From NCBI GenBank assembly GCA_964436855.1, contig CAYTED010000001.1:64129-128128 (forward strand): a stretch of 64,000 nt of DNA. The letters are read 5' to 3'. Both the position numbers and the translations under genes were made by a program. Positions within the stretch are counted from its first letter, which is position 1. Each line of letters begins with the position of its first letter. Positions 1 to 48,174 of this stretch are shown one piece after another. Origin of the DNA: an uncultured Bdellovibrionales bacterium (GTDB lineage Bacteria; Patescibacteriota; Minisyncoccia; Moranbacterales; UBA1568). The notes under the pieces were generated by a model. The model saw nothing but the letters and a program-made list of their open reading frames with translations, was not told the DNA's origin and ran no database searches.

Positions 1-1
1 G

Positions 2-1459: not shown

Positions 1460-1494
1460 TAAAATGGCTAAGTTAAGCGAATAATTACGAACCG

Positions 1495-2583
1495 ATGCGA
1501 AAAGAACATCTCCGGTACCTCTCCGATCCGATTTCCAAAAAACCATTCACTCTCACTTCTTTTGAAGAAACAGGCGCTCATATCATTTCCGGTATCATCA
1601 CTGCCGAATATTCTTGGTATCCGGTTATAAACGGCATTCCACGCATCTTGACGGGCGAACTCAAAGAAAATCTCCTTCAAATTCATCAGGATTTTTTCAA
1701 ACAATGGAAAGAAAAACTTTCAAAAGAAATCCACGCCGAGTGGCAACAGGCGATCGGCGCCATTCCTGACCTCGACGCCTTTCTGAAACACCAAAAGAAA
1801 ACCGCCGAAAGTTTCGCGTATGAATGGAAATACATTTACAAGGAAAACGACTACGAAAAAAATAATTTTTTTCACTTTCTCTCGCCATTTCTCCAAGAGG
1901 AAAACTTGAAAGGAAAAAAAACACTCGATATCGGCTGCGGATCAGGACGATTTACCAAGTGGGCAGCGCTTTCGGGAACCGAAGTATCCTTTGGCTCTGA
2001 TCTCGGTGAAACCGTCGAAGTTGCCTACGAGATGACGAAAGATTTTCCGAATGTTTGTATCATCCAAGCCGACATTTATGCGATGCCATTTTTCGAAACC
2101 TTCGATATTGCCTACTCGATCGGCGTCCTTCACCATCTTCCACGACCGAAGCAAGGATTCTTGAAACTTCCGAAAGTCGTCAGAAAAGATGGGCAATTCC
2201 TCATCTGGGTCTATAATCGCCGTGGGAACGCCCGCGCCATTTACTTCTACGAGCCACTTCGCGATCTCTTGAAGAAACTCCCAAAACCACTCCTCTTCAA
2301 GCTCTGCTATATCCCTGGCTTCATTGTTCACTTAATCAACCTTTTCGGAAAATTTCTCGAAGCAATTGGTCTGAAAAAGCTCGCCAGCAAACTCCCCTTC
2401 GCTTACTACGCGCACTTCCCATTCAATATGAAACTGAACGATGCCTTTGATGTTCTCGCCACCCCGAAGAGTAACTACTATTACTACGAAGAAATCGAAA
2501 AATGGTTCGCAGACGGCGGCCTGAAAGATGTGAAATCCTTCGAACATCCCGAGGCGGGCATCACCTGTATTGGCACCCGATAA
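1495..2583 (+). CDS. Class I SAM-dependent methyltransferase with an N-terminal Trm112-like segment
   Basis: LDIGCGSGRFT motif I followed by the acidic motif II; N-terminal YPVINGIPRIL resembles the Trm112/DUF343 fold. Confidence 0.75.
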   Translation: MRKEHLRYLSDPISKKPFTLTSFEETGAHIISGIITAEYSWYPVINGIPRILTGELKENLLQIHQDFFKQWKEKLSKEIHAEWQQAIGAIPDLDAFLKHQKKTAESFAYEWKYIYKENDYEKNNFFHFLSPFLQEENLKGKKTLDIGCGSGRFTKWAALSGTEVSFGSDLGETVEVAYEMTKDFPNVCIIQADIYAMPFFETFDIAYSIGVLHHLPRPKQGFLKLPKVVRKDGQFLIWVYNRRGNARAIYFYEPLRDLLKKLPKPLLFKLCYIPGFIVHLINLFGKFLEAIGLKKLASKLPFAYYAHFPFNMKLNDAFDVLATPKSNYYYYEEIEKWFADGGLKDVKSFEHPEAGITCIGTR

Positions 2584-2642
2584 TTTTCCTTCTCCCTCCC
2601 TCTTCCAAAGAGAATAAAAGAAAAGGTTGTGATGAAAAGACT

Positions 2643-3758
2643 ATGAGTCAGAAGAAAAAAATTCTCCAACTCATTCGCACCCTCGAAATTGGTGGTTGCG
2701 AAGGTGCGCTGCTCCGTATGCTTCCTCTTATCAAAGATGATATCGAACATATCATCCTCACGCTCCAAAAAAAAGGTTCCCTCGCGCCTCTTTTTGAAAA
2801 AGAAGGAATCCGTATTATTGCCTTGGAACAGAAAAACCTCCTTGATATTCCTTCATATTTCCGGTTGAAAAAAATTCTCCAAGAAATCCAGCCACATCTC
2901 ATCGTTACCAACCTTCTCCATTCCGATATTGTCGGAAGACTTTTTATTCAATTTATTGTGCCGTGTCGTGTTGTATCCTCACTCGTCACAACCTATAACT
3001 TCGGCCCATACTGGCCAGCACGCCTCTTCGAGCGATCGACAAAATATTTAGCCAATAGATATATGGCCAATGCTGAATCGGTCAAATATGTCTATGTCAA
3101 AAAATTCGGCGTGAATCCTCAAAAAATATCTGTTTTACCAAGAGGTATAGATACGGATTTTTTTTCAAACATTATGCCCGATCCGGAATTGCAAATGAAA
3201 CTTGGAATAACTGAAACGGATCATGTCGCTATCTGCGTCGCTAATCTTCATCCCAATAAAGGTCACAGGTTTCTTTTGGAGGCCTTCGAAAAACTCTATA
3301 AGACAAAAAAAAACATCAAACTCCTTCTTGTCGGAGAAGGGCAGGAGAAAGAGAATCTCCTGCGCCAAGTAGAGGCTTACCAATCGAAAAACAATATCCT
3401 CTTCCTTGGAAAACGAGATGACGTTCCAAAGCTTCTCCAACTTTCACATGTCTTTGTTCTTCCAACATTTTTTGAGGGTATGAGCAACGCCATTATGGAG
3501 GCAATGGCAAGCGGCCTTCCTACTATCACAACTGATATTCCTGAAAATCAAGAACTTATCACACACAATGAACATGGACTTCTCTGCCCCATCGGAGAAT
3601 CCAAGTGTCTCGAAAAATCCCTTGAGCTCCTCTTTGTTGATACGGAACTTGCCAATTCCCTTGGAAAGAATGCACAGAAAAAAATGCAAGAAAAGTATAA
3701 CTTTCCAAAAACAACAAGCGACTGGAAAAACTTTTTTCTTCAAATGGCCAAACCCTGA
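2643..3758 (+). CDS. Glycosyltransferase family 4 (GT-B, group 1)
   Basis: C-terminal EGMSNAIMEAMASGLPTITTD, the classic GT4 E-X7-E region; start chosen at MSQKKK (ATG 2643) just after the upstream stop. Confidence 0.8.
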   Translation: MSQKKKILQLIRTLEIGGCEGALLRMLPLIKDDIEHIILTLQKKGSLAPLFEKEGIRIIALEQKNLLDIPSYFRLKKILQEIQPHLIVTNLLHSDIVGRLFIQFIVPCRVVSSLVTTYNFGPYWPARLFERSTKYLANRYMANAESVKYVYVKKFGVNPQKISVLPRGIDTDFFSNIMPDPELQMKLGITETDHVAICVANLHPNKGHRFLLEAFEKLYKTKKNIKLLLVGEGQEKENLLRQVEAYQSKNNILFLGKRDDVPKLLQLSHVFVLPTFFEGMSNAIMEAMASGLPTITTDIPENQELITHNEHGLLCPIGESKCLEKSLELLFVDTELANSLGKNAQKKMQEKYNFPKTTSDWKNFFLQMAKP

Positions 3759-3778
3759 AAACAATAGAAATACTCTCT

Positions 3779-4615
3779 ATGGAAAGTGAACTCTACGAAC
3801 ACAGCTACCAAGATCCACGACACTTTAGTTTTGGAAAAAACTGGAAAGATTTTCTTCATACACTCAATCAAAAGAGAATAGAAAAAGCCGAGCAGTCCCT
3901 AACCGATTTCCTTGGTGGAAAAGAAAGTGTTTCCGGAAAAACTTTTATCGATATTGGCTGCGGCAGCGGGCTTTTTTCCTTGGCTGCTCACCGACTTGGG
4001 GCAAAGAAAGTGGTAAGTGTGGATATCGACCGCTTTTCTTTGGAATGCGCCTCATTCCTGAAGAAAGAAGCTGGTAACCCTCCACACTGGGATATTATTT
4101 CCGGTTCAGCTCTCGATACAAATTTTCTCCACTCCCTTGGTACTTTTGACATTGTATACTCATGGGGAGTCCTCCATCATACCGGTAATATGTACCACGC
4201 CCTTACAAACATTTTCCCCATCGTCAAAGAAACCGGAAAAATTTATGTTGCGCTCTACAATGACAATCAGAGATTTTTCGAAGGAACTTCTTCTTTTTGG
4301 GTACAAGCCAAAAGAATCTACAATCGAAGCCCATGGGTCTTGAAAAAATTTTTTGAAATCCTGTATACCTTCTACTATATTTTCGGACTCATCATAAACG
4401 GTAAAAATCCTGTTTCTTATATTCGAAATTACACCTCACTTCGAGGTATGAATTTTTGTACCGATATTAAAGATTGGCTCGGCGGATACCCGTATGAATA
4501 TGCCTCTACAGAAAAGATTATCGCTTTCTTTAATAAGTATGGCTTTCAGTGCATCAAAACGGTTCCGGCACGTAGCATCGGTTGCAATGAATTCCTCTTT
4601 ATACAAAAAATATGA
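3779..4615 (+). CDS. Class I SAM-dependent methyltransferase
   Basis: FIDIGCGSGLFSLAA motif I and VVSVDID motif II. Confidence 0.75.
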   Translation: MESELYEHSYQDPRHFSFGKNWKDFLHTLNQKRIEKAEQSLTDFLGGKESVSGKTFIDIGCGSGLFSLAAHRLGAKKVVSVDIDRFSLECASFLKKEAGNPPHWDIISGSALDTNFLHSLGTFDIVYSWGVLHHTGNMYHALTNIFPIVKETGKIYVALYNDNQRFFEGTSSFWVQAKRIYNRSPWVLKKFFEILYTFYYIFGLIINGKNPVSYIRNYTSLRGMNFCTDIKDWLGGYPYEYASTEKIIAFFNKYGFQCIKTVPARSIGCNEFLFIQKI

Positions 4616-5421
4616 ACACCCTCTCAAACTCCTCGCCAGTCACTGTTCTTCTCTCTGTATATAACGGGGAAAAAACACTTGAAAGATGCATCCGAAGTAT
4701 CTGCGCGCAAACGTATCAAAACCTTTCTCTTGTATGTATCGATGACTGCTCTACGGACCATACCCAAGAAATATTAAAAAAAATACAGGAACAGTTTCCA
4801 AACATTCCATTTACTCTAATCAGAAATGAAAAAAATGTCGGTCTGACCCACTCACTCAACCGTGGACTCGAAACAATTGACAGTTTCTATACTGCCCGCA
4901 TCGATGCCGATGACTGGTGGGAACCAACAAAAATTGAAAAACAGATGGCGTTTCTCGAGAGTCATCCTGATTACGGAGTTATCGGAACCAACTACATCAA
5001 TCACTCTGCCGAAACTTCAAGAAGCGTTGTTTTACCAAAAACAGATGCGGAAATTCATGCGACAATTTTTTGGCGAAATCCGTTCGCTCATAGTGCGGTA
5101 ATGTATCGCACCGATTTCATACGTTCGCTTGGCGGTTATAATCCGAATGTCCCATACGCCCAGGATTACGAGCTTTGGGTACGTTGTTTCCCTCATACAA
5201 AGTTTTATAATATTCAGGAATTTCTTTGTCACCGAACACTCGGAACGAGTATTTCTGTCAAGCGACAAAACGAACAAATGCGTCTTTATCTCCGTGTACT
5301 TCTTACTTACTTACCAAAGTACCGTCGACCATTAACCGAATATGGGGCTCTCATAGAACCAACCCTCGTACTTTTAACCCCAAACTGGATAAAGAATCTT
5401 AAACGAAAATATTTCCCATAA
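4612..5421 (+). CDS. Glycosyltransferase family 2 (GT-A)
   Basis: N-terminal VLLSVYNGEKTLERCIRSI...DDCSTDHT, typical GT2 with a DXD-type motif; 4-nt ATGA overlap with the upstream gene. Confidence 0.8.
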   Translation: MNTLSNSSPVTVLLSVYNGEKTLERCIRSICAQTYQNLSLVCIDDCSTDHTQEILKKIQEQFPNIPFTLIRNEKNVGLTHSLNRGLETIDSFYTARIDADDWWEPTKIEKQMAFLESHPDYGVIGTNYINHSAETSRSVVLPKTDAEIHATIFWRNPFAHSAVMYRTDFIRSLGGYNPNVPYAQDYELWVRCFPHTKFYNIQEFLCHRTLGTSISVKRQNEQMRLYLRVLLTYLPKYRRPLTEYGALIEPTLVLLTPNWIKNLKRKYFP

Positions 5422-5427
5422 TCATAT

Positions 5428-6432
5428 ATGAAAATCTTCTTGCCTTTTGAAATACGAGGAATCGGGGGAACATCTACTTTTGCAAAAAAATTTCAAGAAG
5501 GAATGCAAAAGCATGGTCACGAGGTCTTTTTTCGATACCAAAAAAATTATGACGTTCTCTTCCTTGTTGTGCAGGCGCCTTTCAAATACCTGATCGAGGC
5601 AAAACGAAGAAACATCCCCATCATTCAACGTCTGGATGGGACATATTACTGGTCGGTCAGCGGATGGAAATTTCCTCTTTACAACCTCAAAGCCGCAATC
5701 ATTCGCCATTCCTTCGCTGATTTCACACTTTATCAAAGTGAATACAGCAAATATTGCGCGAAAAAATTCCTCGGAAAAAAACATTTGGATCCTTCGGTAA
5801 TCATTTACAATGGAACTGATCTCGATCTTTTTTCACCAAAAGGAGAGACGATCAATCTCCGAGACACTCCTGATCAAAAAATATTTTTTACCGCCTCCGC
5901 CTTTCGAAGAGAGGATCAAATCATCCCCTTATTTCATGCACTCAAAGCATACCGGGAAAAATACGGATCAAACTTCAAATTTCTCATTGCTGGAACCTTT
6001 TCCGGAAAAGTGTCCGATATACCAAAGCGATACCAAGACTTCAGAGAAGCTATTTTTCTTGGTAAAATAGAAAATGCCGATTTACCGAAATACGAACGGT
6101 CGGCTGATGTGTTTCTCTTCACTCATCTCAATCCGCCATGCCCGAATAATGTAATCGAGGCACTTGCCTGCGGTCTTCCGATATGCGGTGTCGCCGACGG
6201 ATCTATGTCCGAGCTTATAACTCCGGGTAAAAACGGAGAGTTGGCCTCGGCGAAAGGAAGTGCTTTTTGGAAAGAAAGAATATACGACCCAGTTGCATTT
6301 GCCGATAATATCCAAAAAATACTCGATCACCGAGAAGTATATTCCGAGAACGCACGATTGAGCGCCGAAAAAAATTTTTCCCTGAACGCTATGATTGCCG
6401 ACTACGAAAAAGCCTTGAGCTGTATTCCTTGA
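5428..6432 (+). CDS. Glycosyltransferase family 4
   Basis: C-terminal NNVIEALACGLPICGVADGSMSELI, the GT4 nucleotide-sugar binding region. Confidence 0.8.
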   Translation: MKIFLPFEIRGIGGTSTFAKKFQEGMQKHGHEVFFRYQKNYDVLFLVVQAPFKYLIEAKRRNIPIIQRLDGTYYWSVSGWKFPLYNLKAAIIRHSFADFTLYQSEYSKYCAKKFLGKKHLDPSVIIYNGTDLDLFSPKGETINLRDTPDQKIFFTASAFRREDQIIPLFHALKAYREKYGSNFKFLIAGTFSGKVSDIPKRYQDFREAIFLGKIENADLPKYERSADVFLFTHLNPPCPNNVIEALACGLPICGVADGSMSELITPGKNGELASAKGSAFWKERIYDPVAFADNIQKILDHREVYSENARLSAEKNFSLNAMIADYEKALSCIP

Positions 6433-6482
6433 ATTGTATACATTATCCGCACATACTTAAATGCTTCCTTTTTAAAAATATC

Positions 6483-7682
6483 ATGAAAGATGTCATCCTT
6501 TTCCAGCCATATCTGCGAGTACACATACTCAATTTTGGGAAAGCCGTACAAAATTTCCGATTCGTCGTCGAATCGGACCGGTTCGCTTCCACCAAAAATT
6601 TCTATAAGAAGAGTATGTCTTCTCCGGAAAAAGAATTTTCTCGGTCAAAAGTAGGTTGGAAAAATAAAATACGGAGATTGTTCGGCATTCTCAATGTCAG
6701 GCCGAAATGTATGAAAAAAGGAGATGTTCTTTTTACCTACGGATGCCTCCTACTTACCAATAAACCCTATTGCACCTATATCGAAAACGGTGCCGCACTT
6801 TTCAATTATGATCCATTTATTTTGAAAAATCCGCTCGCTCAACTCTGGTTCTCCTTTCTTATCCGCCTCCCTCAATGCAAAAAGCTTATTTTTATGAGCG
6901 AAACGGCGAAAAAAAGCTTGATTGCTACGGCACATTTTTCAAAATCCACCCGTCGAATCATCGAAAAAAAATCCGTTCAGATTTATCCTTTCGTAAAAGC
7001 ACCGGTAAACATTATACCAAAACAATACAACGGATCCGTCAAGCTTCTTTTCACGGGCATTTATTATATGAAAGGAGGGCGCGAACTCCTGAATGCTTTT
7101 GAAAAAATACGCGAGCGATACGATAACATCACACTGACTATCGTCACTCCCCTCCATATGCTCCTTCCCGAGGATCGAAATCGTATCGAATCAGTCTCCG
7201 GAACCACACTTCTTGATGCCTCTTTCAGTCCGGAAGAAATGGAAAACTTGTACCGAACGCACGATATCTTTATGTTCCCCACATTCCGGGATACGTTTGG
7301 ACTTGTGCTTATCGAGGCAATTTCCTTTGGTATGCCAATCATCGCAACCGATCAATATGCGATTACCGAAATGGCAATTCCGAACCACAATGCCCTGATA
7401 TTCCCCAACCATCCCCTTCTCGATCACAACCCCGAAACAAAAGAAATGCACGGGAAACTCTATGATGCCAAAACCTTTTATAACGTGCTTTTCGCCGCAG
7501 AACGAGAAGGAAAAATGAAACCATTGGAAAATTTTCTTTTTGAGTCCATCTCTTGTTTTGTGGAAAAACCAGAACTCCTCAAGCAGTACTCAAAAAATTC
7601 ACTTGAACTCTACCAAAAAAAATTCCACGAAAACCTTATCTCGGAGAAAATTGAACGAGTATTTTCAGAAGCGGCAAAGTGA
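6483..7682 (+). CDS. Glycosyltransferase family 4
   Basis: TFGLVLIEAISFGMPIIATDQ GT4 motif; start set at MKDVILF (ATG 6483) after the upstream stop at 6430-6432. Confidence 0.75.
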   Translation: MKDVILFQPYLRVHILNFGKAVQNFRFVVESDRFASTKNFYKKSMSSPEKEFSRSKVGWKNKIRRLFGILNVRPKCMKKGDVLFTYGCLLLTNKPYCTYIENGAALFNYDPFILKNPLAQLWFSFLIRLPQCKKLIFMSETAKKSLIATAHFSKSTRRIIEKKSVQIYPFVKAPVNIIPKQYNGSVKLLFTGIYYMKGGRELLNAFEKIRERYDNITLTIVTPLHMLLPEDRNRIESVSGTTLLDASFSPEEMENLYRTHDIFMFPTFRDTFGLVLIEAISFGMPIIATDQYAITEMAIPNHNALIFPNHPLLDHNPETKEMHGKLYDAKTFYNVLFAAEREGKMKPLENFLFESISCFVEKPELLKQYSKNSLELYQKKFHENLISEKIERVFSEAAK

Positions 7683-7690
7683 AAAGCTTT

Positions 7691-9355
7691 CTACTTGGAA
7701 AGCCGATACAGCCGATAATCAACATCTTCCGATATCACCTCAAATGGGTACGATATATTTGAATATGTCAGTACCAAATTCACCCCGTATTTTCGAGCAA
7801 GCGAAGTGATCTCTTCCTCCGAAAAACTTGAGTATGTTTTCTTCCAATCAATGAAAACTGCTTTAAAGGTTCCGGATATTTTTTGTTTCTCGTAGTTTTG
7901 CTCGAGTTCGCCACGACTCATATCATTCATCCGCTCATACCACTCCTCCAAACCTTGAGGAGTAAAGCCGAAGGTTTTAAAGCTCACGGCATGCGGTACA
8001 TAGAAAGGTGGTCCGAACCAATTCGGTGGAGCAAGAAATGGTTCCGGATTGACGGCAAGATAACGCATAACTCCAGATTCGGGAAGTTTTTCGTTCCTTG
8101 CCTCGGAATGAGTCGCATATTCCCATGATCTTGAAATATTCTGCATCATCCGATCCGCAAAAACTTTTCCAGAAGTTGAGAGGCAGAATAATATCGAAGC
8201 GGCAAGCAGAACACCAAGAAAAATTTTTTGATACGTTCTTTTTTGGAGCCAAGAAACAAGGAGAGATACGGCCAAGAGAGCGGAAAACAAATAGCTCACG
8301 AAGTGAGTGAGGTAAATAACACGGAGTGAGTAAAATTGAAAGCCGGGAAGCCAAGGCCACACGAAAGCAAAAAAGTAAAAGAGAAAAAAGTACCCTACCG
8401 CCCCTACCCCAATCAACCCAAGAAAATCCAATTGATTCTTCGCTGAAGTTTCCATTTTTTTTCGAAGGATATACCAGCTCACACCAAGAGCGAGGATGTG
8501 TACAAAGAAAAGAAACCACGCCTTCCAGGTAATAATCGGCAATGCCATATACGGAGCACGGAAATAAATCCATGTCCAGATGAATTTCGCATCAGAAAAG
8601 TCGGCCCCGCCATTGCCGAGACGAGCGATAGAGAAAGCAAACCACCCTCCCGCAAGAAGATATACACTTCCAGCAACCAAAGCTTTACGAAAAAGTCTAT
8701 GCCAATATTGTGGACTGAAATCATTTCTTGCCCACCAATCAAAGATAATCCACGTGCCGAAAAAAAGCGTGAAGACAATCAGTGAATTGGAAACATGGAC
8801 AAGCGTAGCAAGTCCAAGAAGTACCCATGGAAGGAAGCGGGAATTGTTTAAAAGAAAATAGAGCGCAAGGAAAGAAAGCGTCATTCCAATGGATCGAGGA
8901 GCGAGTCCACCATCTACCTGTATGAAAGGTCCGTAGAGCCAAATCGGCGGCGCGATAACAATCACAAGAGCATGAAAGAATGCAACAACAGGAATGATCC
9001 AGGCACTCTCTGAAAAAAACCGCCCGATCCGCAACAATGCCCAGTACAAAACAATGAGACATCCGAGATAGAGAAGCATCCTCCACGTTTCTTCGCTCAC
9101 TGGAAGGAAATGCCAAAAATTCACCATCTTGGCATAAAAAGTATATACACCACTCTCTGTCGCCATCTCCGTATACCAATCCCCCGGCAAATAATTTACA
9201 TCCCAGAGCCGATAAACAGCCGGATCATGAATTCGTCGATCCGGACCAATCCCGAGCGAATGGATACTGAATTCAAAAAATAACAAAGAAAAGAGCAGTA
9301 TTGCCTCTAATAACCCTCTCCTTTTTTCAGTAAAGCTACTCTTTAGATGAAGCAT
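7691..9355 (-). CDS. Polytopic membrane protein, GT-C-fold-like glycosyltransferase (ArnT/PMT_2-like) with a C-terminal soluble domain
   Basis: About 12 predicted hydrophobic helices followed by a ~150-aa hydrophilic C-terminus; last gene after a GtrB-like and a GtrA-like gene; 20-nt overlap with the upstream gene. Confidence 0.6.
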   Translation of the reverse strand: MLHLKSSFTEKRRGLLEAILLFSLLFFEFSIHSLGIGPDRRIHDPAVYRLWDVNYLPGDWYTEMATESGVYTFYAKMVNFWHFLPVSEETWRMLLYLGCLIVLYWALLRIGRFFSESAWIIPVVAFFHALVIVIAPPIWLYGPFIQVDGGLAPRSIGMTLSFLALYFLLNNSRFLPWVLLGLATLVHVSNSLIVFTLFFGTWIIFDWWARNDFSPQYWHRLFRKALVAGSVYLLAGGWFAFSIARLGNGGADFSDAKFIWTWIYFRAPYMALPIITWKAWFLFFVHILALGVSWYILRKKMETSAKNQLDFLGLIGVGAVGYFFLFYFFAFVWPWLPGFQFYSLRVIYLTHFVSYLFSALLAVSLLVSWLQKRTYQKIFLGVLLAASILFCLSTSGKVFADRMMQNISRSWEYATHSEARNEKLPESGVMRYLAVNPEPFLAPPNWFGPPFYVPHAVSFKTFGFTPQGLEEWYERMNDMSRGELEQNYEKQKISGTFKAVFIDWKKTYSSFSEEEITSLARKYGVNLVLTYSNISYPFEVISEDVDYRLYRLSK

Positions 9356-9746
9356 AGCTCCAGAAGGAATGAGCGGAGAAGTTAATAACCGTAGTAATGA
9401 TTGCTACAATGATAATAACAAAAAGATCGTTAAGGTGAAGATACGATACTCCAAGATGCATAAGAAACAAACTGAGTATAGATGTCGAAAAAATCACCAC
9501 AAGAAAACGCGGAACTTGTGTGGTCACTTTTCCTGATGTCGCCTGAAAGGTCCAAATACGATTGATGCTAAAATTCCACACAATTGCCACACTCAATGAA
9601 ATTGTCCGACTCAAAAGGTAATATATATCACCATAACGAGTGAGCATGAAATAGATGGCTACATCGATAAGCAAAGCAATTCCGCCAGTGACGATAAACT
9701 TCACGAGACGTTGAAATGGAAATTTTTCAATAAGAGACCAGAGCAT
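9336..9746 (-). CDS. gtrA: GtrA-family small membrane protein (lipid-linked sugar translocation accessory)
   Basis: FIVTGGIALLIDVAIYFMLT and four short TM segments typical of GtrA-like proteins; start chosen at MLWSLIEKF; the track ORF extends to 9815. Confidence 0.65.
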   Translation of the reverse strand: MLWSLIEKFPFQRLVKFIVTGGIALLIDVAIYFMLTRYGDIYYLLSRTISLSVAIVWNFSINRIWTFQATSGKVTTQVPRFLVVIFSTSILSLFLMHLGVSYLHLNDLFVIIIVAIITTVINFSAHSFWSYASSKE

Positions 9747-9750
9747 TTTT

Positions 9751-10494
9751 TTAAAAAGCTTTTTTAGAAACAAAGCGGAATTTGAGGAATGTCCAGAGAG
9801 CAACAAAAAAATCACTGGCTCTTATTTTTTTTCCCTCCTTCACGGTTCGTGGATGATAAGAAATTGGAACCTCCATTATTCGTATGCCACTTCGAAGTAA
9901 TTTAGCAGTCAATTCATGATCTGTCTCAAATCCGAAAGTACGAATAGAAAAACTTTTTAAAATATGAGCCGGATATACTTTGTATCCTGTTAATGTATCT
10001 GTCATATATCGCCCATACAGAAAAAATACCCACAACGAAAGAAGGGCATTGGCAATATACGTAGCTATCGATTTATCCCTATGTTTTCCTAGAAGAAAAC
10101 CCCCCTCTTTTTCTTTTAATTCTCCAAGAATACGACTCCCATATATCGACAAAGATTGTGTATCACCTAAAAGCGGCTTTAAAAGAGGAATATAGTCATT
10201 CGGATCATACTCCAAATCCGCATCCTGAATAAGAATGTAGTCCCCTGTCGCTTTGGCCATCCCATATTTCGTGGCGGATCCTTTTCCACCATTTTCCTTA
10301 CGATAACACTGCACCTCTGGAAAACGCGAAGCGATTTCTGAAGTTCGGTCTTTTGAGCCATCATCTACCACGATAATTTCTCGCTCAAAACCGATTGATC
10401 GCAAATCGACTTTAAGAATAGTTTCGAGAAGCGTCCCGATAAACGCCTCTTCATTATACGCTGGAATAACGATTGATACTTTTGGCATACTCAA
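9751..10494 (-). CDS. GT2 polyprenyl-phosphate sugar synthase (dolichol-P-mannose synthase / GtrB-like)
   Basis: [11 protein letters not shown]...[12 protein letters not shown]...[10 protein letters not shown] pattern of DPM1/GtrB-like GT2 enzymes. Confidence 0.8.
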
Positions 10495-13303
10495 CTTTCA
10501 ATGATTTTTCTTTCCACACGGAATATTTCAACAATGTCCAAAGACATTTGATACCATCGAGAACCGTAATCTTCTTTCCCTCTTTGATCGTCCGAGCCTT
10601 ATAACTCACCGGCACTTCCAGAATAACATATTTTTTGCGTGCGATCTTGGCAATAAGTTCCATATCGAAATCGACGCCATTTCGAGTGAACTGCAAATCC
10701 CTGAAAATACGGGCATTGAAGCCCTTGAGGCTCGTGAGGGGGTCACCAACAAAGCGATGATAAATAACGAGCGTTAAAATACTCAATAGTGCCCCGCCAT
10801 ACTTGCTGATAAGATAAAGAAAGCCCTTCTCCCCATAAATTCGTTTCAAAGTTCCATTTAAATCATTCGTCCGGAATGCACGACTGCCAAAAACGACCGG
10901 GAATTCCTGATTTACGAGCGGTTGCACGACCCGAGCAATATCCGAGATAAGATATTCTGCATCGGAAGGAAAAAAGACAACGATATCCCCTTTCGCCTTT
11001 TCCAGACCAAGTCGTAACGCTTTTCCTCGACCTCCACTGGTACGATACACTCGTACGCCTGACTCCGCACTGGCAATTTCATAAGTCTTGTCCGAAGATC
11101 CTCCGTCAACAAAGATAATTTCTTTTTCCAAGGCAGTACCAGGAAAATGAAACCGCATCAGACCATGGAGAACACTTTTGACAGTCCGTTCTTCATTGAG
11201 CGCCGGAACAATAATCGAGACCTTTTGAGCAATATGGGCGACCTTTTTCTGCAGAGCTCCTTCAACAAGTAAAAGGAGTTCGGAAATCGTCTTACTTCCG
11301 GAATGTTTTCCTTTTTCCCCTTCCCAATCAATCCAGACAACTTTTTCCAATGGATACTCGAATGCCTTTGCATCAAAGGGAACGTAGGGGGTTTCCCCTG
11401 AAGCATTTGCTTCTGGTTTTTGGAAGAAAAACCGAGTCACCACATCCTGGCACTTCACTGCTCCATCTACCTTTCGACTCATATTAAAAAGAAATGCTCT
11501 CACGAGAGTCGTGGCATCTTCTCCAAGAATATCGTAGTCCCGCGCTATATTGGCAATAAAAATCTTTTCTGCACGGGTATTTTCCTGAATTGCTTCCGCG
11601 ATGCCCGACGTAAGATAAGAAGGCAGAAGTGATGAATATTGGGTTCCGGGTCCGTAAATAATGATATCCGCTTCCCGAAGCATTTTTTCCGCAACCGGAT
11701 TGATATCAGGAAGCGACTCTACATTTCGTAAGAGACGTATGTTATCAATCTTAAATCGACCGAGCGGATATTTTGCTTGATCAAGATACTCCGGTAAAAG
11801 AAAAATTTCCTGAATACGCGAATTATCCTGCGGTCCAACAATACTCGCCTCATCATACAAATATTTTCCATTCTCTTTCATTGCCACTAACACTCGATTA
11901 TCTCCATTTGTAATATTCAACACTCGATCACCAACTTCTGCAAAGAGAGAAAAGTTGGTTATGGCTTCATTGAAGTCCTCTCCGCTAGCGAGGTAGCACC
12001 CGGCAAAAAGGAGATTCCCAAAAGAGCAATCAGAAAATGTGAATTCCGGAAAGGAAACTATTCGTTGCTCATAATAGCGCAGGAATGCTTCAAGATACCG
12101 ACTCGCTTTCTTCGCCTGAATGAGTGCGAGTTTTTCCCTTAATACAAGAAGTTCGTGTGTAAGCTCATTGTGTTCTAAACTCACAAAGCTTCGCAATAGC
12201 AACAAAGCTTCATTTGTCCCTGTACCATCAGGAAGGCGATATTCAATCAGCTCATGCAACGCTTGCGAAGCGGTATCGGTCCTGACCTTCAGAAAGCGTG
12301 AGATATTTTTTCTGACATCAGAAGGACCAAGCATTCCTGGAATAAACCGGCGCAAAAGTCCGGTGGAGAGACCATCGTCGTACGTATTTACAAGGAGGGT
12401 AAGTTCGATATCGGGGTATTTCAGCAATGCCTCCGTAAGCGCCCCTGTCCCTCTCCCACCGGAAAACATCACTACTTTTAAATGCGCATTTGATTCTTTC
12501 ATACTCGTCATTAATGGATAAAATTCAAGAAGAGTAGCATCTGCATTATCATTGACGCCAACAGTCTCTTCAATACCCTCCAAGCGAAACGAAAGTACAC
12601 TTTCGTTTCCCGACTCAAAAAGTGGAAGCATCGGAAGAAAATTCCATTCCTTCGTAACCGGACTATATAAGATTCCTTTACTTTGCATGGAAGAGAAGAC
12701 TTCTTTCAGGCGAGATGAACGAAATGCAAAAACACCACAATCACTCTCACCGATAGCTGGCATTTTCTTACCCTCCCTTCTTTCATAAATGGATCGAAGA
12801 AGTCCGGAATGATCGCGCTCATAATGAACATACGGATCATTTCGAGAAACAAGAGGAAAAGAAAACTCCGTAGAGTGAGAATACTGTTGAATCCTCATCG
12901 TTCGATCTATGGTATCTTGTTGAATCGCGGCTTGGTCGCCCCAAATAATAAACGTGTATGGTGTGGAAATGAGTGGGATTCCCAAAGAAATAGCATCCGC
13001 CATTCCTTTTGGCTCATTTTGTATAACAATTTGATATTTCCCCTTCAACCTCCTCTCAAGATATGGTTCTACAGAAGCAACTCCTTGTGGAGAAAGAATA
13101 AAAATAAACGTTTTACATCGTGCCTCTAGACGATCGATAATCCAATCAAGAATCGGTCGTCCAGCCACTGGAAACAATATTTTTGGTTTTGAGTATCCCA
13201 AGCGACTCCCCCTTCCTGCTGCCGGAATAAGAGCCGTCCACTCATTTGCATCAGGATCTTGCTTATATCGTTCATCAACTTCATTGAGCGTGAGGATTTT
13301 CAT
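10454..13303 (-). CDS. Tri-domain fusion of 949 aa: N-terminal sugar/phospho-acid nucleotidyltransferase (NTP_transferase/MobA-like), central CofD/YvcK (UPF0052) family domain, C-terminal GT2 glycosyltransferase
   Basis: N-terminal [29 protein letters not shown] (G-x-G-x-R-L NTP-transferase loop). Middle [11 protein letters not shown]...[16 protein letters not shown] and [18 protein letters not shown] match the YvcK/CofD signature (compare YvcK GGGTG...ADDGGSSGRLR...GPGSLYTSI). C-terminal [11 protein letters not shown]...[12 protein letters not shown]...FFPSDAEY is a DPM1-like GT2. Confidence 0.8.
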
Positions 13304-13985
13304 ATGTCTCCCATTCCGAAAAAATCAATTCAATATCTGAAATTTTTTTTACAACAAAGTTTGCACCGGCCGTAAAAAGATCCTCCTCACTTTCCGTTCC
13401 AATAACCCCAACAACCCACATACCGGCATTTCTGCCTGCTCGAACGCCACTCGAAGCATCTTCAACCACTATACACCTCTCTGGCGCTATATCAAGCCTT
13501 TTTGTAGCTTCTTGATAGATTTCCGGTGAAGGTTTCGCTTCCTTGACCATAGACCCATCGAGAACAACAGAAAAGACATCGGAAAAACCACATTTTCGTA
13601 TAAAAAACTCCACAGTCTGTGGAGAAGCCGAAGAGACCAGTGCAAGACGGTATCTTTCCTGAAGAGCATGAACAAGCTGCTCGCTTCCAGGAGCTATTCT
13701 CCCTTCTGTTTCCAAGAGTTCGAGTGCCTTTTTCCGCTTTGCCGAAACAAGCACCCATAGCTCTTCAGAAGAAAATTTCCTCCCTCTTTCAGAAAGCACC
13801 TTGACCATTGCTTCGTCAGTCCGCATGCCGGCTACCGAAGCATATGAGAAATCACTTATCCCAATTTCATTCAATACTTCCCGATATGCTCGCTCATGAC
13901 AATCACTGGAAAGAAAAAGAACGCCATCCATATCGAATATCACCGCCTCGATATGCCCGAGATTATTTTTCATATTTTTGAGCAA
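13281..13985 (-). CDS. HAD-superfamily hydrolase (beta-phosphoglucomutase/phosphatase-like)
   Basis: IEAVIFDMDGVLF (DxDG motif I) and downstream HAD motifs; 23-nt overlap with the downstream fusion gene. Confidence 0.75.
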   Translation of the reverse strand: MLKNMKNNLGHIEAVIFDMDGVLFLSSDCHERAYREVLNEIGISDFSYASVAGMRTDEAMVKVLSERGRKFSSEELWVLVSAKRKKALELLETEGRIAPGSEQLVHALQERYRLALVSSASPQTVEFFIRKCGFSDVFSVVLDGSMVKEAKPSPEIYQEATKRLDIAPERCIVVEDASSGVRAGRNAGMWVVGVIGTESEEDLFTAGANFVVKKISDIELIFSEWETYENPHAQ

Positions 13986-14898
13986 CTATCCGCGATTGCC
14001 CGATCCAGTATTTGATAGGAAGCGATCCGAGACCAATTTTCTCGACTATTTTTCCGATATACTTGAAAAGAAAAAAGTGTTGTCTAGCCCGATACAACAC
14101 ATAACCCAATTCCAGGGTTTGCCAGTGCATTCCAATATCAACCACCTGAAAACCAGCTTTTCGAAGCTGTTTCCGAATAGTCTTCCTCGTATAGTACACC
14201 AAATGAACACTCAAAAGAAATGGCCATTTCCTCCCCAGAAGCCGTGCGGCAAAACTGCCAAAATCAGGGTAATTGACTACAAGCAATCCATCCGACTTTA
14301 AAATTCGATGTATCTCTTTGAGTTCAGCGCTTGGATCCGGAACATGTTCAATAACATCCCATAGCGTGACAAGATCGAATGTCGCATCCGGAAAAGAGTG
14401 ATCGAATAAAGTTCCCGTACGGACATCAAGATGATGTTTTGAGCGCGCGTATTCACTCAGCCATTTACTTGGCTCAATACCAATAGCCGATACCCCAAGT
14501 CCTTGAGCGGCACGAAGGAACGCTCCACCGGCACAACCAATATCCAACACCTTGGTATCATTGGAAAAACGCAAGTGAAATTTTTTTTGAAGCCATTGAA
14601 GTGCCGCAGTAAACGTCCGGATACGCATCAAATCTTGCTCCACGAAAGCCCTATCCTCTCCTTCAGCGTAAGAATCAACGATCATCTCTGAACGAAGACG
14701 AGGATTCAAATAAACAAGCCCGCACTTCGTGCACCGAACCACTTGTTCAAAAATCGTCTGATCGCTTGACGATCGATAGACTCTTGTCAGAAAATCTCTG
14801 GTCAAATTTTCTGGAAATCTTCCATGATACACTATCTGAAATTCCAAATGGGAACAAAGCGGACAAGCAATCGTCTCAAAAAAATCTTTCTGCTCCAT
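13963..14898 (-). CDS. Class I SAM-dependent methyltransferase with an N-terminal zinc-ribbon
   Basis: CPLCSH...CTKCG zinc ribbon followed by LDIGCAGGAFL motif I. Confidence 0.75.
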   Translation of the reverse strand: MEQKDFFETIACPLCSHLEFQIVYHGRFPENLTRDFLTRVYRSSSDQTIFEQVVRCTKCGLVYLNPRLRSEMIVDSYAEGEDRAFVEQDLMRIRTFTAALQWLQKKFHLRFSNDTKVLDIGCAGGAFLRAAQGLGVSAIGIEPSKWLSEYARSKHHLDVRTGTLFDHSFPDATFDLVTLWDVIEHVPDPSAELKEIHRILKSDGLLVVNYPDFGSFAARLLGRKWPFLLSVHLVYYTRKTIRKQLRKAGFQVVDIGMHWQTLELGYVLYRARQHFFLFKYIGKIVEKIGLGSLPIKYWIGQSRIVAQKYEK

Positions 14899-14944: not shown

Positions 14945-16192
14945 TTAAAGAGGCAATGCGCTTCTTGCACCCTTCTCCATGTCCTTGAGAAATCTTCGAT
15001 AGTTCACTCCGAGAAAAACCAAAAGGCTAAGATTAAACACATACAAATAGAAGGCAGTGATCACAAAAAAACTCAATCCTTGAAGAAAAAGAATTCCCCC
15101 CACCATGAGTGCCAATGTATTGGCGAAAGCAAAGGCCAAAATTACGAAAGCATTTTTCTCTTGAGCAGAAAAAAAATTCGTAAAGTAAGTTTTAAAAGGA
15201 AAGAAAAAAACCAACGGAGATAATATCCACGCAAGCGACAAAGAGTCTGAATATTCCGAGCCATACACAAAAGGAAAGCATACGAATAAAAAGACTCCCA
15301 TAAAAAGAAAAGAGGCTATCCCTGAAAGAGAATTCCAGAAAAATATGCCTTGAAATGACTCTGTATCTCGAAACTCCTTAAAAAAATCTGGTAGTTTGAG
15401 GGCGATGAGCGCACCAAAATATGCTGAAAGAGCAGAAAGAGGAAAATAAGCAATTTGAAAAACCGCCACTAGCGAATATCCGAAAACAGCCCCAATAAGT
15501 ATGGGCGGAAGATTTTCCGTAAGATTCAAAAAAAATTTTTGACCCGTTACCGCAAGAGCATACCTAAAAGAAAAATCTTCTTTTTCGTTGTGATACCGAG
15601 ACTTTGCTTCAAAAAAGAACCAAACGGAAAAAATCGAGGTAACAGCAAAATAAACCGACACAATAAGAAGCAGATTGGCTCGAAAAAAAAGCAGGAGTAA
15701 CAACGCCAAAACCCATAAAAATGAAATGGATATCGATCGAAGAGCTACTGATCGAAATATCTTTTGACCCTCATAATAAGTATACCAAGGATTAAAACCG
15801 TAGAAGAAAGGAAAAAAGAAAGCAGCTACAAAAAAAGACTTCGCGACTTCCTCTGAAGAAAAATGCCATTGAAATATCCCGATACAAAAAAGAAGGATTG
15901 ATCCTATAAAACTCATTCGCAGCCCCATACGGACTGCTTGAGCTACTGATCCAAATGCTCCATGTACAACGCCTTTTAAGGCTGAAAAAGAAAGGCCTGG
16001 GAGTGAAAAAACGGAAACAAGCGCAACAATTGACAGCACATACTGAAAAGAACCATACGTTTCCTTATCCGACATCCTGGCAAATATGACGGAAACCAAA
16101 AAGCCCGCAAGCGATATAATTCCATAGCGAAACGAGATCCAAAAACCATTTCTCAAGACATGATTTCTCTCAAATTCATGAGCTACATCCAT
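14945..16192 (-). CDS. Polysaccharide biosynthesis/export protein (Wzx-like PST-family flippase)
   Basis: Polytopic membrane protein (~12 TM) with the N-terminal pattern of Wzx/PST flippases; sits in the glycan operon. Confidence 0.65.
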   Translation of the reverse strand: MDVAHEFERNHVLRNGFWISFRYGIISLAGFLVSVIFARMSDKETYGSFQYVLSIVALVSVFSLPGLSFSALKGVVHGAFGSVAQAVRMGLRMSFIGSILLFCIGIFQWHFSSEEVAKSFFVAAFFFPFFYGFNPWYTYYEGQKIFRSVALRSISISFLWVLALLLLLFFRANLLLIVSVYFAVTSIFSVWFFFEAKSRYHNEKEDFSFRYALAVTGQKFFLNLTENLPPILIGAVFGYSLVAVFQIAYFPLSALSAYFGALIALKLPDFFKEFRDTESFQGIFFWNSLSGIASFLFMGVFLFVCFPFVYGSEYSDSLSLAWILSPLVFFFPFKTYFTNFFSAQEKNAFVILAFAFANTLALMVGGILFLQGLSFFVITAFYLYVFNLSLLVFLGVNYRRFLKDMEKGARSALPL

Positions 16193-16199
16193 ATAAAAA

Positions 16200-17624
16200 T
16201 CACCTCTTCTTCAATGAAGGAAATATCCTCTGTAACACCTTTCTCACTTCACTCTGATTTTCGCCCCGTTTCACTAAGTGCTCAAGACTGACAAACACCG
16301 TATCTATGTCCATTGGGCAACATTCGTCATTTTTAAGAATAAAGACGTTTTCGGTTTTCGATTGAATGAGATTTTTTTTCTCGATATCCGTATAGAGCTC
16401 CTCCACGAGCTTTTCTCCCTTACGCAACCCGATCACACGGATTGCTACATCAGTTTCAGGAATAAGATTTTTTGAGCGAATCAGACAACGTGCAATATCA
16501 TCAATATTAATCAATTCCCCCATATTGAGGATATGGATCGCATTCGGCTTCGCAAATGCCGAACTTTCGATCACAAGCTGCGCCGCTTCCCGAATCGACA
16601 TAAAGAAGCGCATCATCTTTTTGTGCGTCACGGTTACATATTGATAGAGCATCATCTGACGTTCAAAGAGTGGGAGAACTGACCCATTGGAATTGATGAC
16701 ATTTCCGAATCGGACGATGTTAAACTTCGTCTTTCCTGACTTCAAGTGACGGATATAGTATTCGCAGAGCTTCTTCGTCGCTCCCATCACGCTCGTCGGA
16801 TTCACCACCTTGTCCGTCGAAATAAAAGTGAAATAGGGAACCTTCATTTCAATAGCAGTATCAATCACCCGCTTTGTACCGATAACATTATTGTAAACAG
16901 ACTCATCCACATTCTCCTGCATGAGATGTACGTGTTTGTACGCTGCTGCATGAAAAATCATATCCGGCTTGTATTCCGAAAAAAGCCGTTTCAACTTGTT
17001 GTCATGAAGAATACTCCCAACAACAAGCTCACATCGGTCCCGCATCCCCTGCTCCTTCAGTCGTTGTTCTAAAAGAAAGACGAGGTACTCCGAATTGTCA
17101 TATATCACCACTTTCCTCACCTCAAGATCAATCAACTGCCAGACGATTTCCGAACCGATAGATCCCGCGCCTCCGGTTACAAATACTGTTTTGCCACGAT
17201 AGAAGTTCTTCAGTTTTTCAACTCCTTTTCTCATAAACGGTCGACCAAGGAAATCTCCCGACTCGAGATCTCTGACCTCCACATACCGAACATCGCTCTT
17301 GCTGATAATACGCTGGTTTCGAGGAACAATTTTGAAAGGAATCCGAGTCTCCTCGTTTTCAAGTAAGATACTGCGAATCAACTTTCCATCTGTAGATGGA
17401 ATGGCGATGATCACCTCTTCTACATTATAAATGCCAAGCAGTTTTGGAAGATCGGAAATTTTTCCAAGAACGGATTTGTTATGCACAGCATCATCCACAA
17501 ACCCGATGACTTTCAGATCCTGATGATTCAACTTGATGTCTTGCGCAAGAAGCTTCCCTGCCCTTCCTGCGCCAACAATGATGATATTTTTTTCTTTCTT
17601 TTCAGTTAGCATATCACAGCACAC
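16200..17624 (-). CDS. Nucleoside-diphosphate-sugar 4,6-dehydratase/epimerase, CapD/PglF/WbpM-like
   Basis: N-terminal CoA-binding-like Rossmann (IIIVGAGRAGK) plus a second VFVTGGAGSIGSEI short-chain dehydrogenase domain, as in CapD/FlaA1/PglF. Confidence 0.8.
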   Translation of the reverse strand: MCCDMLTEKKEKNIIIVGAGRAGKLLAQDIKLNHQDLKVIGFVDDAVHNKSVLGKISDLPKLLGIYNVEEVIIAIPSTDGKLIRSILLENEETRIPFKIVPRNQRIISKSDVRYVEVRDLESGDFLGRPFMRKGVEKLKNFYRGKTVFVTGGAGSIGSEIVWQLIDLEVRKVVIYDNSEYLVFLLEQRLKEQGMRDRCELVVGSILHDNKLKRLFSEYKPDMIFHAAAYKHVHLMQENVDESVYNNVIGTKRVIDTAIEMKVPYFTFISTDKVVNPTSVMGATKKLCEYYIRHLKSGKTKFNIVRFGNVINSNGSVLPLFERQMMLYQYVTVTHKKMMRFFMSIREAAQLVIESSAFAKPNAIHILNMGELINIDDIARCLIRSKNLIPETDVAIRVIGLRKGEKLVEELYTDIEKKNLIQSKTENVFILKNDECCPMDIDTVFVSLEHLVKRGENQSEVRKVLQRIFPSLKKR

Positions 17625-19362: not shown

Positions 19363-19419
19363 AATTTTCCTTTGTTAGAAGGATTTTTTGTATTATACTG
19401 TCAAAAGAATTCTTTGGAA

Positions 19420-26191: not shown

Positions 26192-26269
26192 GAATGTAAT
26201 ATTATCTTTATTACTATTAAAAAGTATATAAAAGAAAGTATAAAAAAACAAAACCTAGGTTTACACCAT

Positions 26270-31649: not shown

Positions 31650-31665
31650 ATACGTCCGAATCGCT

Positions 31666-48078: not shown

Positions 48079-48174
48079 TTCTTTTTTTGTGTTGCTTTTT
48101 TTATTCGCTTTTACCCATATTGTATCATAAAAATTAGCGGGGATTCCACTCACGCCGAGATTGTGCACGAAGGT

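Follow-up and report, generated by a model that had tools for sequence, protein, structure and literature searches.

Results

The final three genes of a nine-gene minus-strand operon, which runs from position 19362 down to 7691 of the window (the whole 64,000-nucleotide stretch of DNA that was analysed), encode a GT2, a GtrA-family protein and a candidate GT-C-fold membrane glycosyltransferase of 554 amino acids. The GT2, a DPMS/ArnC-like catalytic domain at 9751..10494, can be read as 247 amino acids from a TTG at 10494 or as 245 from an ATG at 10488, the latter being the length at which its orthologue in one related locus (L001) is called. GtrA lies at 9336..9746 (136 amino acids, ATG at 9746, four hydrophobic segments by hydropathy), and the 554-aa protein at 7691..9355, with its ATG at 9355 and a GGAG 4 nt upstream of it. 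All three minus-strand reading frames were thus recovered where the initial annotation had placed them, and the overlapping or abutting arrangement that it had described is borne out by the junctions: the preceding 949-aa reading frame, with its end at 10454, runs 35-41 nt past the GT2 start, a gap of 4 nt separates the GT2 stop at 9751 from the GtrA ATG at 9746, and GtrA, whose stop codon occupies 9336-9338, overlaps the 554-aa gene by 20 nt. Since GtrA and GT2 score above their Pfam cut-offs and full-length homologues of the 554-aa protein number 70 (40-62% identity), these are not chance open reading frames.

The six genes upstream are likewise on the minus strand. A double SDR epimerase/reductase (17614-19362) and a PglF-like UDP-HexNAc 4,6-dehydratase (16200-17624), both assigned by Pfam, NCBIfam and synteny, make up the start of the operon (16200..19362) and are followed by a Wzx-like polysaccharide flippase (14945..16192; Pfam Polysacc_synt, 1.8e-13) whose position is conserved. 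Next comes a cassette that begins with a SAM-dependent methyltransferase (13963..14898; Methyltransf_23, assigned by Pfam and by synteny inside and outside the candidate phyla radiation, CPR) and continues with a beta-phosphoglucomutase-like HAD-family hydrolase/mutase (13281..13985; Pfam, NCBIfam and synteny) and a 949-aa fusion protein (10454..13303). Pfam and PDB sequence matches for each domain show that this fusion joins a sugar-1-P nucleotidyltransferase resembling GlmU to a YvcK/CofD-like domain and to a second GT2, also DPMS-like, which is 37% identical to the stand-alone GT2 and has PSD in place of DAD. The fusion gene lies immediately upstream of the GT2 and is linked to it in all loci examined.

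A hairpin at 7704-7685 spans the stop codon of the 554-aa gene and a -10/-35-like site lies upstream of 19362, both no more than compatible with operon ends, and promoter and terminator scans found such sites no more often than in shuffled sequence. Only 8 nt separate the end of the 554-aa gene from a convergent GT4 gene (stop at 7682), which belongs to a plus-strand operon at 1..7682 encoding an AsnB-like amidotransferase, a methyltransferase, a GT4, a methyltransferase, a GT2, a GT4 and a GT4 (Pfam). The AsnB-like gene is cut by the start of the window, its frame being open to base 2. This convergent operon is syntenic in all related loci and probably builds the glycan exported by Wzx. At the other end, a second GT-C of the PMT/ArnT type (GT39/GT83-like; Pfam PMT, 2.8e-7) diverges from the operon on the plus strand (19372..21000). 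Its homologues carry PF02366 and PF13231, and a PMT-type GT-C flanks the cluster in four related loci (L003, L010, L012, L015).

The assignment of the small membrane protein to the GtrA family is confirmed by a full-length match to Pfam GtrA_DPMS_TM (PF04138; 73.3 bits against a cut-off of 26.1, E 2.4e-20); it would be either a flippase or the membrane subunit of a lipid-sugar synthase. The GT2 also matches its Pfam family well above the cut-off (98.4 versus 23.3 bits). By both sequence and fold its top match is PfDPMS (PDB 5mlz), the type-III DPMS of Pyrococcus furiosus, with ArnC, PcManGT and GtrB also among the matches, in agreement with its earlier description as DPM-synthase-like; processive synthases, the class that had been named as an alternative for this enzyme, score lower. 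The scores of GpgS and MpgS come close to those of the polyprenyl-phosphate enzymes. The accompanying label of GtrB-like did not hold for the architecture: hydropathy analysis finds no transmembrane segment in the 247-aa chain, which stops after the catalytic domain, so that the C-terminal transmembrane helices of GtrB, CsbB and ArnC are absent. What the protein does have, besides a DAD motif, is a hydrophobic helix (residues 143-161) and, at the C-terminus, an amphipathic one (226-240). Its most hydrophobic 19-mer has a Kyte-Doolittle value of 1.61 (mean 1.5 over 18 orthologues), and we read helix 143-161 as an interface helix, not a transmembrane one.

PfDPMS has a GtrA-like transmembrane domain that may serve to flip its product (PMC12992685). 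The GT2 and GtrA of the window reproduce this domain architecture, with the difference that they are two adjacent, separate genes, that the GT2 is only 25% identical, and that GtrA, which returned no match in a PDB sequence search, lacks a direct sequence match to the PfDPMS transmembrane domain; the link between the two therefore rests on the literature and on how Pfam defines the family. GtrA proteins are reported to lack the polar-pocket motifs of type-III DPMS (PMC12992685). The pair looks like a type-III DPMS split in two.

The 554-aa protein, to which a database entry is 100% identical, had been described as polytopic with a soluble C-terminal domain, and its structural model agrees, showing helices to about residue 415 followed by an alpha/beta domain (approximately residues 420-554) that contains a sub-threshold DUF6798 motif. 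Three-dimensional fold comparison identified the transmembrane module as a GT-C fold, which upholds its description as GT-C-like. Eleven transmembrane segments are predicted, with the N-terminus in and the C-terminus out. The predicted first outside loop follows TM1 at residues 35-89 and comprises 55 residues with three short helices, carrying D39, D44 and D59. Across 34 homologues, the mean density of lysine plus arginine is 0.26 per residue in the predicted inside loops versus 0.05 in the predicted outside loops, which places both this loop and the C-terminal domain outside. The conserved acidic motif, for which an extracytoplasmic position had been proposed, accordingly falls in a predicted outward-facing loop. 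Directly after TM1, GPDRxIHDP is invariant in the family, as are D39 and D44, while D59, R266 and W472 are invariant in all 41 aligned sequences, relatives at 16-30% identity included; at position 39, 40 of the 41 sequences of this wider superfamily have D or N. All 34 family and all 41 superfamily sequences lack WWDxG, the C-terminal-domain motif of the STT3/AglB/PglB oligosaccharyltransferases.

At the level of sequence profiles the expected family assignment was not obtained. In Pfam and NCBIfam, no recognised GT-C family (PMT, PMT_2, STT3, ArnT, YfhO and others) matched the 554-aa protein above threshold, nor was a non-glycosyltransferase family matched. Neither the family nor the wider superfamily brought up anything beyond noise when the PDB was searched by sequence and by profile. 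The family is also distinct from PMT/ArnT-type GT-C enzymes (GT39/GT83): it has no Pfam match to PMT or PMT_2, the sole PMT_2 match (4.4e-6) being in one distant relative; hhalign comparison with the PMT-like family of the same locus gave non-significant probabilities of 1% and 32%; and the HMM of that PMT-like family found no significant match among 242 family and superfamily sequences. This lack of a sequence-level tie to recognised GT-C families counts against the GT-C glycosyltransferase reading.

Most of the distant relatives that were found belong to Pfam DUF6798 (PF20604). The window protein itself reaches 19.5 bits, below the gathering threshold of 26.9, and weak matches occur in 27 of the 34 family members (best 2.8e-5). 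In the reverse direction, the family profile retrieves DUF6798 membrane proteins of bacteria and archaea end to end, and 33 of the 41 aligned relatives pass the Pfam model (best 2e-23). The two groups have D59, R266, K460, W472 and R475 in common, although identity is only 16-30% and the window protein remains below the Pfam cut-off. A literature search for 'DUF6798' found no paper naming it. As judged from its modelled fold, the 554-aa protein represents a probable GT-C family new to the databases, in what looks like an already known kind of three-component system.

Gene context, taken from the loci of homologues of the 554-aa protein, supports the proposed coupling of the three genes, as do their overlaps. 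All 15 related loci with enough flank have the GT2 upstream of the GT-C, and 15 of the 16 related genomic loci have GtrA next to the GT-C. The same block adjoins a 30%-identical outgroup (L026), with GtrA coming straight after the GT2, and in a distant relative (P0099) the GT2, GtrA and GT-C family region form a single 995-aa chain in the same order. Findings in other genomes count against three-component coupling. Two DUF6798 relatives (L022, L027) have neither a GT2 nor a GtrA neighbour, and the cassette of methyltransferase, HAD, nucleotidyltransferase-CofD-like-GT2 and GT2 occurs in three non-CPR genomes, from other phyla, that have neither GtrA nor this GT-C nearby: one of Bacteriovorax, one of Brocadiaceae and a third. 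A 578-aa membrane protein beside the cassette in Bacteriovorax sp. BSW11_IV (L023) showed no tie to either GT-C family.

The most conserved partner of the GT2 is the upstream YvcK/CofD-like-GT2 fusion. Hence, while the three genes proposed as a module are linked by conserved synteny, they are the tail of a bigger conserved operon, and the evolutionary unit consists of the methyltransferase, HAD, nucleotidyltransferase, YvcK/CofD-like-GT2 fusion, GT2, GtrA and GT-C.

Discussion

Comparable sets of genes are known from several bacteria. In the Gtr systems (GtrA/GtrB/Gtr*) of Shigella and Salmonella phages, O-antigen is glucosylated by a GT2, GtrA and GT-C that are encoded together, the GT2 charging polyprenyl phosphate with the sugar and the GT-C passing it on outside (PMC11127046). 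The GT2-GtrA-GT-C gene order is comparable to that of the window locus. Teichoic-acid glycosylation in Firmicutes, which are monoderm, employs a GT-A, a GtrA-type protein and a GT-C (CsbB/GtcA/YfhO and GtlA/GtcA/GtlB), and the GT-C of these systems is poorly conserved in sequence and recognised by structure prediction (PMC8035078). The locus described here differs in that neither the 554-aa protein nor its family has a Pfam match to YfhO, and no teichoic-acid genes were detected among the window reading frames scanned. In the GacI/GacJ/GacL system of Streptococcus pyogenes and the PpgS/Rv3632 system of Mycobacterium tuberculosis, a separate small membrane protein stimulates polyprenyl-P sugar synthesis by a GT2, the genes for the two proteins being fused in some cases (10.1101/180810); the Gac flippase is of the Wzx type (PMC8035078). 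The window GT2 has a weak full-length NCBIfam match to PpgS. GacJ and Rv3632, however, are DUF2304 proteins and not GtrA family members (10.1101/180810), and since Rv3632 is a GacJ homologue, the analogy with the window GtrA is functional only.

It is probable that the GT2, GtrA and 554-aa GT-C together form a three-component system for extracytoplasmic glycosylation. The HAD protein, the GlmU-like nucleotidyltransferase, the YvcK/CofD-like domain and the SAM methyltransferase would prepare an activated, possibly methylated sugar. The GT2, associated with the four-helix GtrA, would be held at the inner membrane face by helix 143-161 and its amphipathic C-terminal helix, and would transfer the sugar to polyprenyl phosphate, perhaps in cooperation with the paralogous GT2 domain of the 949-aa fusion. 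GtrA, or a synthase-GtrA complex, would carry the lipid-linked sugar outward, and the GT-C would pass it to an acceptor outside the membrane, using the outside-loop acidic residues D39 and/or D59, with R266, H187 and R345 nearby, and holding the acceptor with its C-terminal domain. A polyprenyl-phosphate-linked donor for the GT-C has only indirect support, from its linkage and fusion to the GT2 and GtrA. The acceptor is most likely the Wzx-exported glycan made by the convergent GT4, GT2, methyltransferase and AsnB-like genes. Of the Gtr/Arn/PMT-type gene logic suggested in the initial annotation, the parts have been identified and found to be linked; they do not form a stand-alone unit, and the function that we infer for them is predicted from these parts.

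Our literature search found nothing on CofD-like proteins in glycan pathways. A bolder version of this scheme, which we consider unlikely, is that the methyltransferase, HAD, nucleotidyltransferase, YvcK/CofD-like-GT2 and GT2 make up an undescribed pathway in which the CofD-type phosphotransferase-GT2 makes an unusual polyprenyl-phosphate-linked donor, which would for example carry a phosphodiester-linked or methylated group, and that the DUF6798 superfamily is a new bacterial and archaeal GT-C family delivering this donor to a CPR surface glycan or glycoprotein.

The second DPMS-like GT2 domain and the second, PMT-family GT-C make the pairing of synthases with GT-C enzymes at this locus ambiguous, which also counts against the three-component reading. 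The GT2 and GtrA might instead feed the PMT-type GT-C at 19372-21000, leaving the 554-aa GT-C to act en bloc, like an oligosaccharyltransferase or ligase, on a Wzx-flipped polyprenyl-diphosphate oligosaccharide destined for a protein or wall acceptor. We regard this as unlikely. In another reading, both the stand-alone GT2 and its paralogue in the fusion would be soluble enzymes of the glycosyl-phosphoglycerate-synthase type in a cytoplasmic small-molecule or sugar-modification pathway, working with the HAD phosphatase, nucleotidyltransferase and CofD-like phosphotransferase, and the lipid-linked donor for GtrA and GT-C would come from elsewhere. This appears quite improbable, however, given that the match with GpgS is confined to the nucleotide-binding N-terminal half of the GT2, whereas its full-length sequence matches are Dol-P/Und-P enzymes (AglJ, Dol-P-hexose transferase, PpgS and PfDPMS), that a near-transmembrane-level hydrophobic helix and an amphipathic C-terminal helix would be expected of a membrane-interface enzyme and unexpected of a soluble one, and that GtrA directly follows the GT2 both in CPR loci and beside the 30%-identical outgroup. 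Finally, there is very little likelihood that the 554-aa protein is no glycosyltransferase at all, whether a Wzy-type polymerase, O-antigen ligase or transporter, readings rejected because of the fold, or an inert GT-C-fold scaffold like PIGU/GAB1.

CPR bacteria spend their lives attached to other microbes; to our knowledge, their surface chemistry is almost unknown. In the three-component reading, the locus, whose host is a probable CPR bacterium, provides a concrete candidate for surface-glycan decoration in some of these organisms. The analysis also draws attention to a widespread cassette built around the YvcK/CofD-like-GT2 fusion, and illustrates that GT-C enzymes missed by sequence-profile annotation can be readily found by structure prediction. 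A fold and a probable role can thereby be assigned to a membrane-protein family hitherto listed as hypothetical or DUF6798, its archaeal members included.

A GT2, a GtrA-family protein and a membrane protein at the end of a minus-strand operon

The stand-alone GT2, the GtrA-family protein and the 554-aa membrane protein are encoded at 9751-10494, 9336-9746 and 7691-9355, all on the minus strand, where the initial annotation had placed them. The GT2 has 247 residues from a TTG start or 245 from the ATG at 10488, the latter being the length called for an orthologue, and its start is overlapped by 35-41 nt by the upstream 949-aa ORF. The gene for GtrA (136 aa, counted from the ATG at 9746) follows after 4 nt and overlaps that of the 554-aa protein by 20 nt; a GGAG lies 4 nt 5' of the latter's ATG, and a convergent GT4 gene lies 8 nt from its end. 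The three ORFs are real genes: the GT2 and GtrA score above the curated Pfam thresholds, and 70 homologues match the 554-aa protein over its full length (40-62% identity; none named, none with a Pfam domain).

Sixteen loci with a member of the 554-aa family, from species-representative genomes, were scanned by phmmer with the window proteins, and the same layout was found wherever the contig extends far enough. One strand carries, in order, double SDR, PglF-like dehydratase, Wzx, MTase, HAD, nucleotidyltransferase (fused or separate), YvcK/CofD-like-GT2, GT2, GtrA and GT-C genes. The convergent strand carries GT4, (MTase), GT4, GT2, (MTase), GT4, MTase and AsnB. In the window, the AsnB-like ORF (1-1459, plus strand) is open to the first bases, the window edge cutting the gene and leaving the glutaminase domain outside; in the ORF list it starts only at ATG 38. 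The glycan locus (1-24000) has a G+C of 0.40-0.44, against 0.45-0.50 in 24000-64000; lower G+C is common in surface-polysaccharide loci. Just past it, 22850-26251 (minus strand) encodes a 1133-aa protein with LCAT-like lipase/acyltransferase and right-handed beta-helix matches.

The GT2 gene lies upstream of the GT-C gene in all 15 informative loci, and GtrA was detected in 15 of the 16, with none found in L011. In the Saccharimonadales locus GtrA comes after the GT-C, and several loci have one or two genes of the opposite strand between the two. The products of such insertions, which follow GtrA or the GT2 (L006 5929-7448, L008 9106-9870, L011 1613-2257, all minus strand), are a kinase-like protein with a P-loop (GKST; about 215 aa) and another protein of about 255 aa. 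In the locus L026, a 30%-identical outgroup protein stands behind the same MTase-HAD-NTPt-CofD-GT2-GT2-GtrA block, with different flanks. The strongest single evidence for coupling is a fused relative of 995 aa (P0099, L021 7001-9988), in which GT2 (8-144), GtrA_DPMS_TM (259-403) and the family region (428-993, with DUF6798 at 873-928) follow one another in the order of the window's genes; its neighbours on a metagenome contig are GT4, GT2 and PMT_2 genes. Two other DUF6798 relatives have neither a GT2 nor a GtrA adjoining.

The 554-aa protein as a candidate GT-C enzyme

Pfam returned a sole match for the 554-aa protein, to DUF6798 at residues 455-479 and below threshold (19.5 bits; cut-off 26.9), while NCBIfam and PDB profile searches returned none. 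Run against 1.84 billion cluster representatives, the family profile matched 273 proteins at E <= 1e-3 and 14 at <= 1e-30. Because 33 of 41 distant full-length matches (520-640 aa) carry DUF6798 above the Pfam threshold (best 2e-23), the sequence evidence places the 554-aa protein in an uncharacterised superfamily, as a divergent member. An archaeal (Methanothrix) protein among these matches has 'DUF6798 domain-containing' as its sole annotation; the Pfam model spans just 61 residues of the C-terminal domain, and a literature search for DUF6798 found no mention of it.

Where homologue sources name an organism, it is Patescibacteria, Saccharimonadales or Moraniibacteriota, and the title of many of the MAG records is 'uncultured Bdellovibrionales'. 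Proteins under the latter title (L005, L006, L008, L010, L012, L014-L016, L019, L020) share 42-58% identity with their window counterparts, as do those labelled Patescibacteria, Moraniibacteriota or Saccharimonadales, and the taxonomic labels may be unreliable. The window itself probably belongs to a genome of the candidate phyla radiation (CPR). Elsewhere in the window, 30504-34986 (plus strand) carries a gene for an HlyD-like membrane-fusion protein and then one for an AcrB-family RND transporter (E 2.7e-162), a pair that would be unexpected if the host is a monoderm CPR bacterium.

Eleven membrane passes were assigned to the 554-aa protein from the helices of a predicted model and hydropathy. 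Lysine and arginine make up 0.26 per residue of the predicted inside loops and 0.05 of those outside (mean over 34 homologues), which supports a predicted topology with the N-terminus inside and the C-terminal domain and the post-TM1 loop outside. The hallmark of GT-C catalysis is an acidic residue conserved in the first loop outside the membrane. Here that loop is predicted to comprise 55 residues (35-89) with three short helices in the model, and it opens with GPDRxIHDP, which contains D39 and D44 and is invariant across the family. D59 in the same loop is conserved in 41/41 sequences, relatives of 16-30% identity included, as are R266 and W472; the same alignment gives R475 40/41, P268 39/41, K460 38/41, R345 37/41 and H187 34/41, and position 39 is D or N in the wider alignment. 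The WWDxG motif, looked for in all family members, is absent. Compared profile to profile with the PMT-type family of its own locus, the 554-aa family gave no significant match (probability 1% and 32%); the same alignment pairs GPDRxIHD with that family's invariant GPDEQxHY, both post-TM1, a possible correspondence that we treat as a lead rather than a test.

The GT2 and GtrA resemble a split type-III DPMS

Full-length sequence matches to the stand-alone GT2 are polyprenyl-phosphate enzymes, namely AglJ, a Dol-P-hexose transferase, PpgS and PfDPMS, the type-III DPMS of Pyrococcus furiosus (E 1.5e-13, residues 4-221); other GT2 classes match its nucleotide-binding half only. A model built together with the fused paralogues (pLDDT 89.9) had PfDPMS as its best fold match and scored 20.5 against GpgS, 20.4 against MpgS, 20.1 against ArnC, 18.6 against PcManGT and 16.9 against GtrB, compared with 13.8-16.2 against hyaluronan and cellulose synthases. 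By these sequence matches and this fold ranking, the GT2 is closer to polyprenyl-P synthases than to processive ones, in agreement with its original assignment, although the soluble glycosyl-3-phosphoglycerate synthases come close behind. It has no TM helix; we infer that two of its helices lie at the membrane interface, one at 143-161 that is hydrophobic (hydropathy 1.61; mean 1.5 in 18 orthologues) and one at the C-terminus that is amphipathic. GtrA matches the Pfam 'GtrA/DPMS transmembrane domain' over its whole length, and the two proteins therefore look like a type-III DPMS split over two genes; GtrA may be a flippase, a synthase subunit or both. GacI/GacJ and PpgS/Rv3632, in which a small membrane protein stimulates the GT2, are a functional parallel, although GacJ/Rv3632-type partners are DUF2304 and the window's is GtrA (10.1101/180810).

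A widespread cassette that includes the stand-alone GT2

The upstream 949-aa protein (10454-13303, minus strand) has three domains. Residues 24-254, a GlmU-like nucleotidyltransferase, align over the full extent of the uridyltransferase domain; the next domain finds its closest PDB relatives among UPF0052/YvcK proteins rather than authentic CofD; and the last is another DPMS-like GT2, which shares 37% identity with the stand-alone GT2 and has PSD in place of DAD (17/17 orthologues). Homologues of the 949-aa protein, found at 40-50% identity in Bacteriovorax sp. BSW11_IV, Brocadiaceae, Bryobacteraceae and Bdellovibrionota, have a much broader distribution than the GT-C family. Three such non-CPR loci (L023-L025) hold the cassette intact, as (radical SAM), MTase, (HAD, in two of the three), NTPt, CofD-GT2 and GT2, with neither GtrA nor a member of the 554-aa family downstream; the tightest tie of the stand-alone GT2 is therefore to the fusion protein. 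In L023, a polytopic membrane protein of 578 aa, whose C-terminal part is soluble and which has no Pfam match (12558-14294, minus strand), directly follows the cassette GT2, beside a Wzx gene, and could be an analogous transferase.

The nucleotidyltransferase/YvcK/CofD-like/GT2 set, fused or adjacent, recurs at L023 9001-11799, L024 8196-11004, L025 8138-11022 and L026 4135-6899, always with a paralogous GT2 of about 240 aa after it and an MTase before it; a HAD gene separates MTase and fusion except in L025, and a radical-SAM gene comes first in L023-L025. The cassette thus spans CPR, Bacteriovorax, Brocadiaceae and others, and we know of no described pathway that accounts for it. In the reaction of authentic CofD, an NDP-linked donor gives up a phospho-group to a hydroxyl. 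YvcK/GlmR binds UDP-GlcNAc and is a reported accessory uridyltransferase (PMC7525490, PMC10128056). Either type of activity could fit a sugar-activation or sugar-modification step.

A second GT-C, of the Pfam-recognised PMT/ArnT type, is encoded divergently from the operon at 19372-21000 (plus strand), and a counterpart lies beside the cluster in L003, L010, L012 and L015. One of the two DPMS-like GT2 domains may be the partner of this GT-C. The two domains and two GT-Cs could form two donor/transferase pairs sharing one GtrA, or the two domains a heteromeric synthase. The three-gene module initially proposed is thus upheld as a linkage, by gene order and by the natural fusion, but not as the whole unit, given a cassette that occurs elsewhere without GtrA or GT-C and the presence of a second GT2 and GT-C.

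Proposed pathway and relation to known systems

Taken as a whole, extracytoplasmic glycosylation is the best supported reading and probably the right one. The cassette would produce an activated, possibly methylated, sugar, which the GT2 with GtrA would load onto polyprenyl phosphate; the lipid-linked sugar would be flipped, and the 554-aa GT-C would transfer it outside, most plausibly to the glycan that the convergent operon encodes and Wzx exports. Type IV pilus genes for a PilB-like ATPase, PilM and a PilC-like platform protein (37377-39209, 46963-48168 and 51819-53093, all minus strand) are consistent with the earlier suggestion of pilins as targets. Since the locus has no recognisable ligase, polymerase or OTase, the 554-aa protein might instead transfer a diphosphate-linked glycan en bloc, which we consider unlikely. 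Slightly less likely again, the GT2s would be soluble, GpgS-like and part of a cytoplasmic pathway. That the 554-aa protein is not an enzyme seems very improbable.

The glycosylation reading shares its logic with three- and multi-component transmembrane glycosylation systems: Gtr, CsbB/GtcA/YfhO, Arn, GacI/J/L and the pentofuranose system that founded GT136 (PMC11127046, PMC8035078). Because reviews already describe GT-C components as poorly conserved in sequence and recognised through structural prediction (PMC8035078), finding one in this way is expected rather than surprising. The novelty lies in the 554-aa family, whose catalytic module has no CAZy or Pfam model, which has no characterised member, and whose close form appears restricted to CPR-type MAGs and is constantly associated with the YvcK/CofD-like-GT2 cassette, the part that could prove different from known systems.
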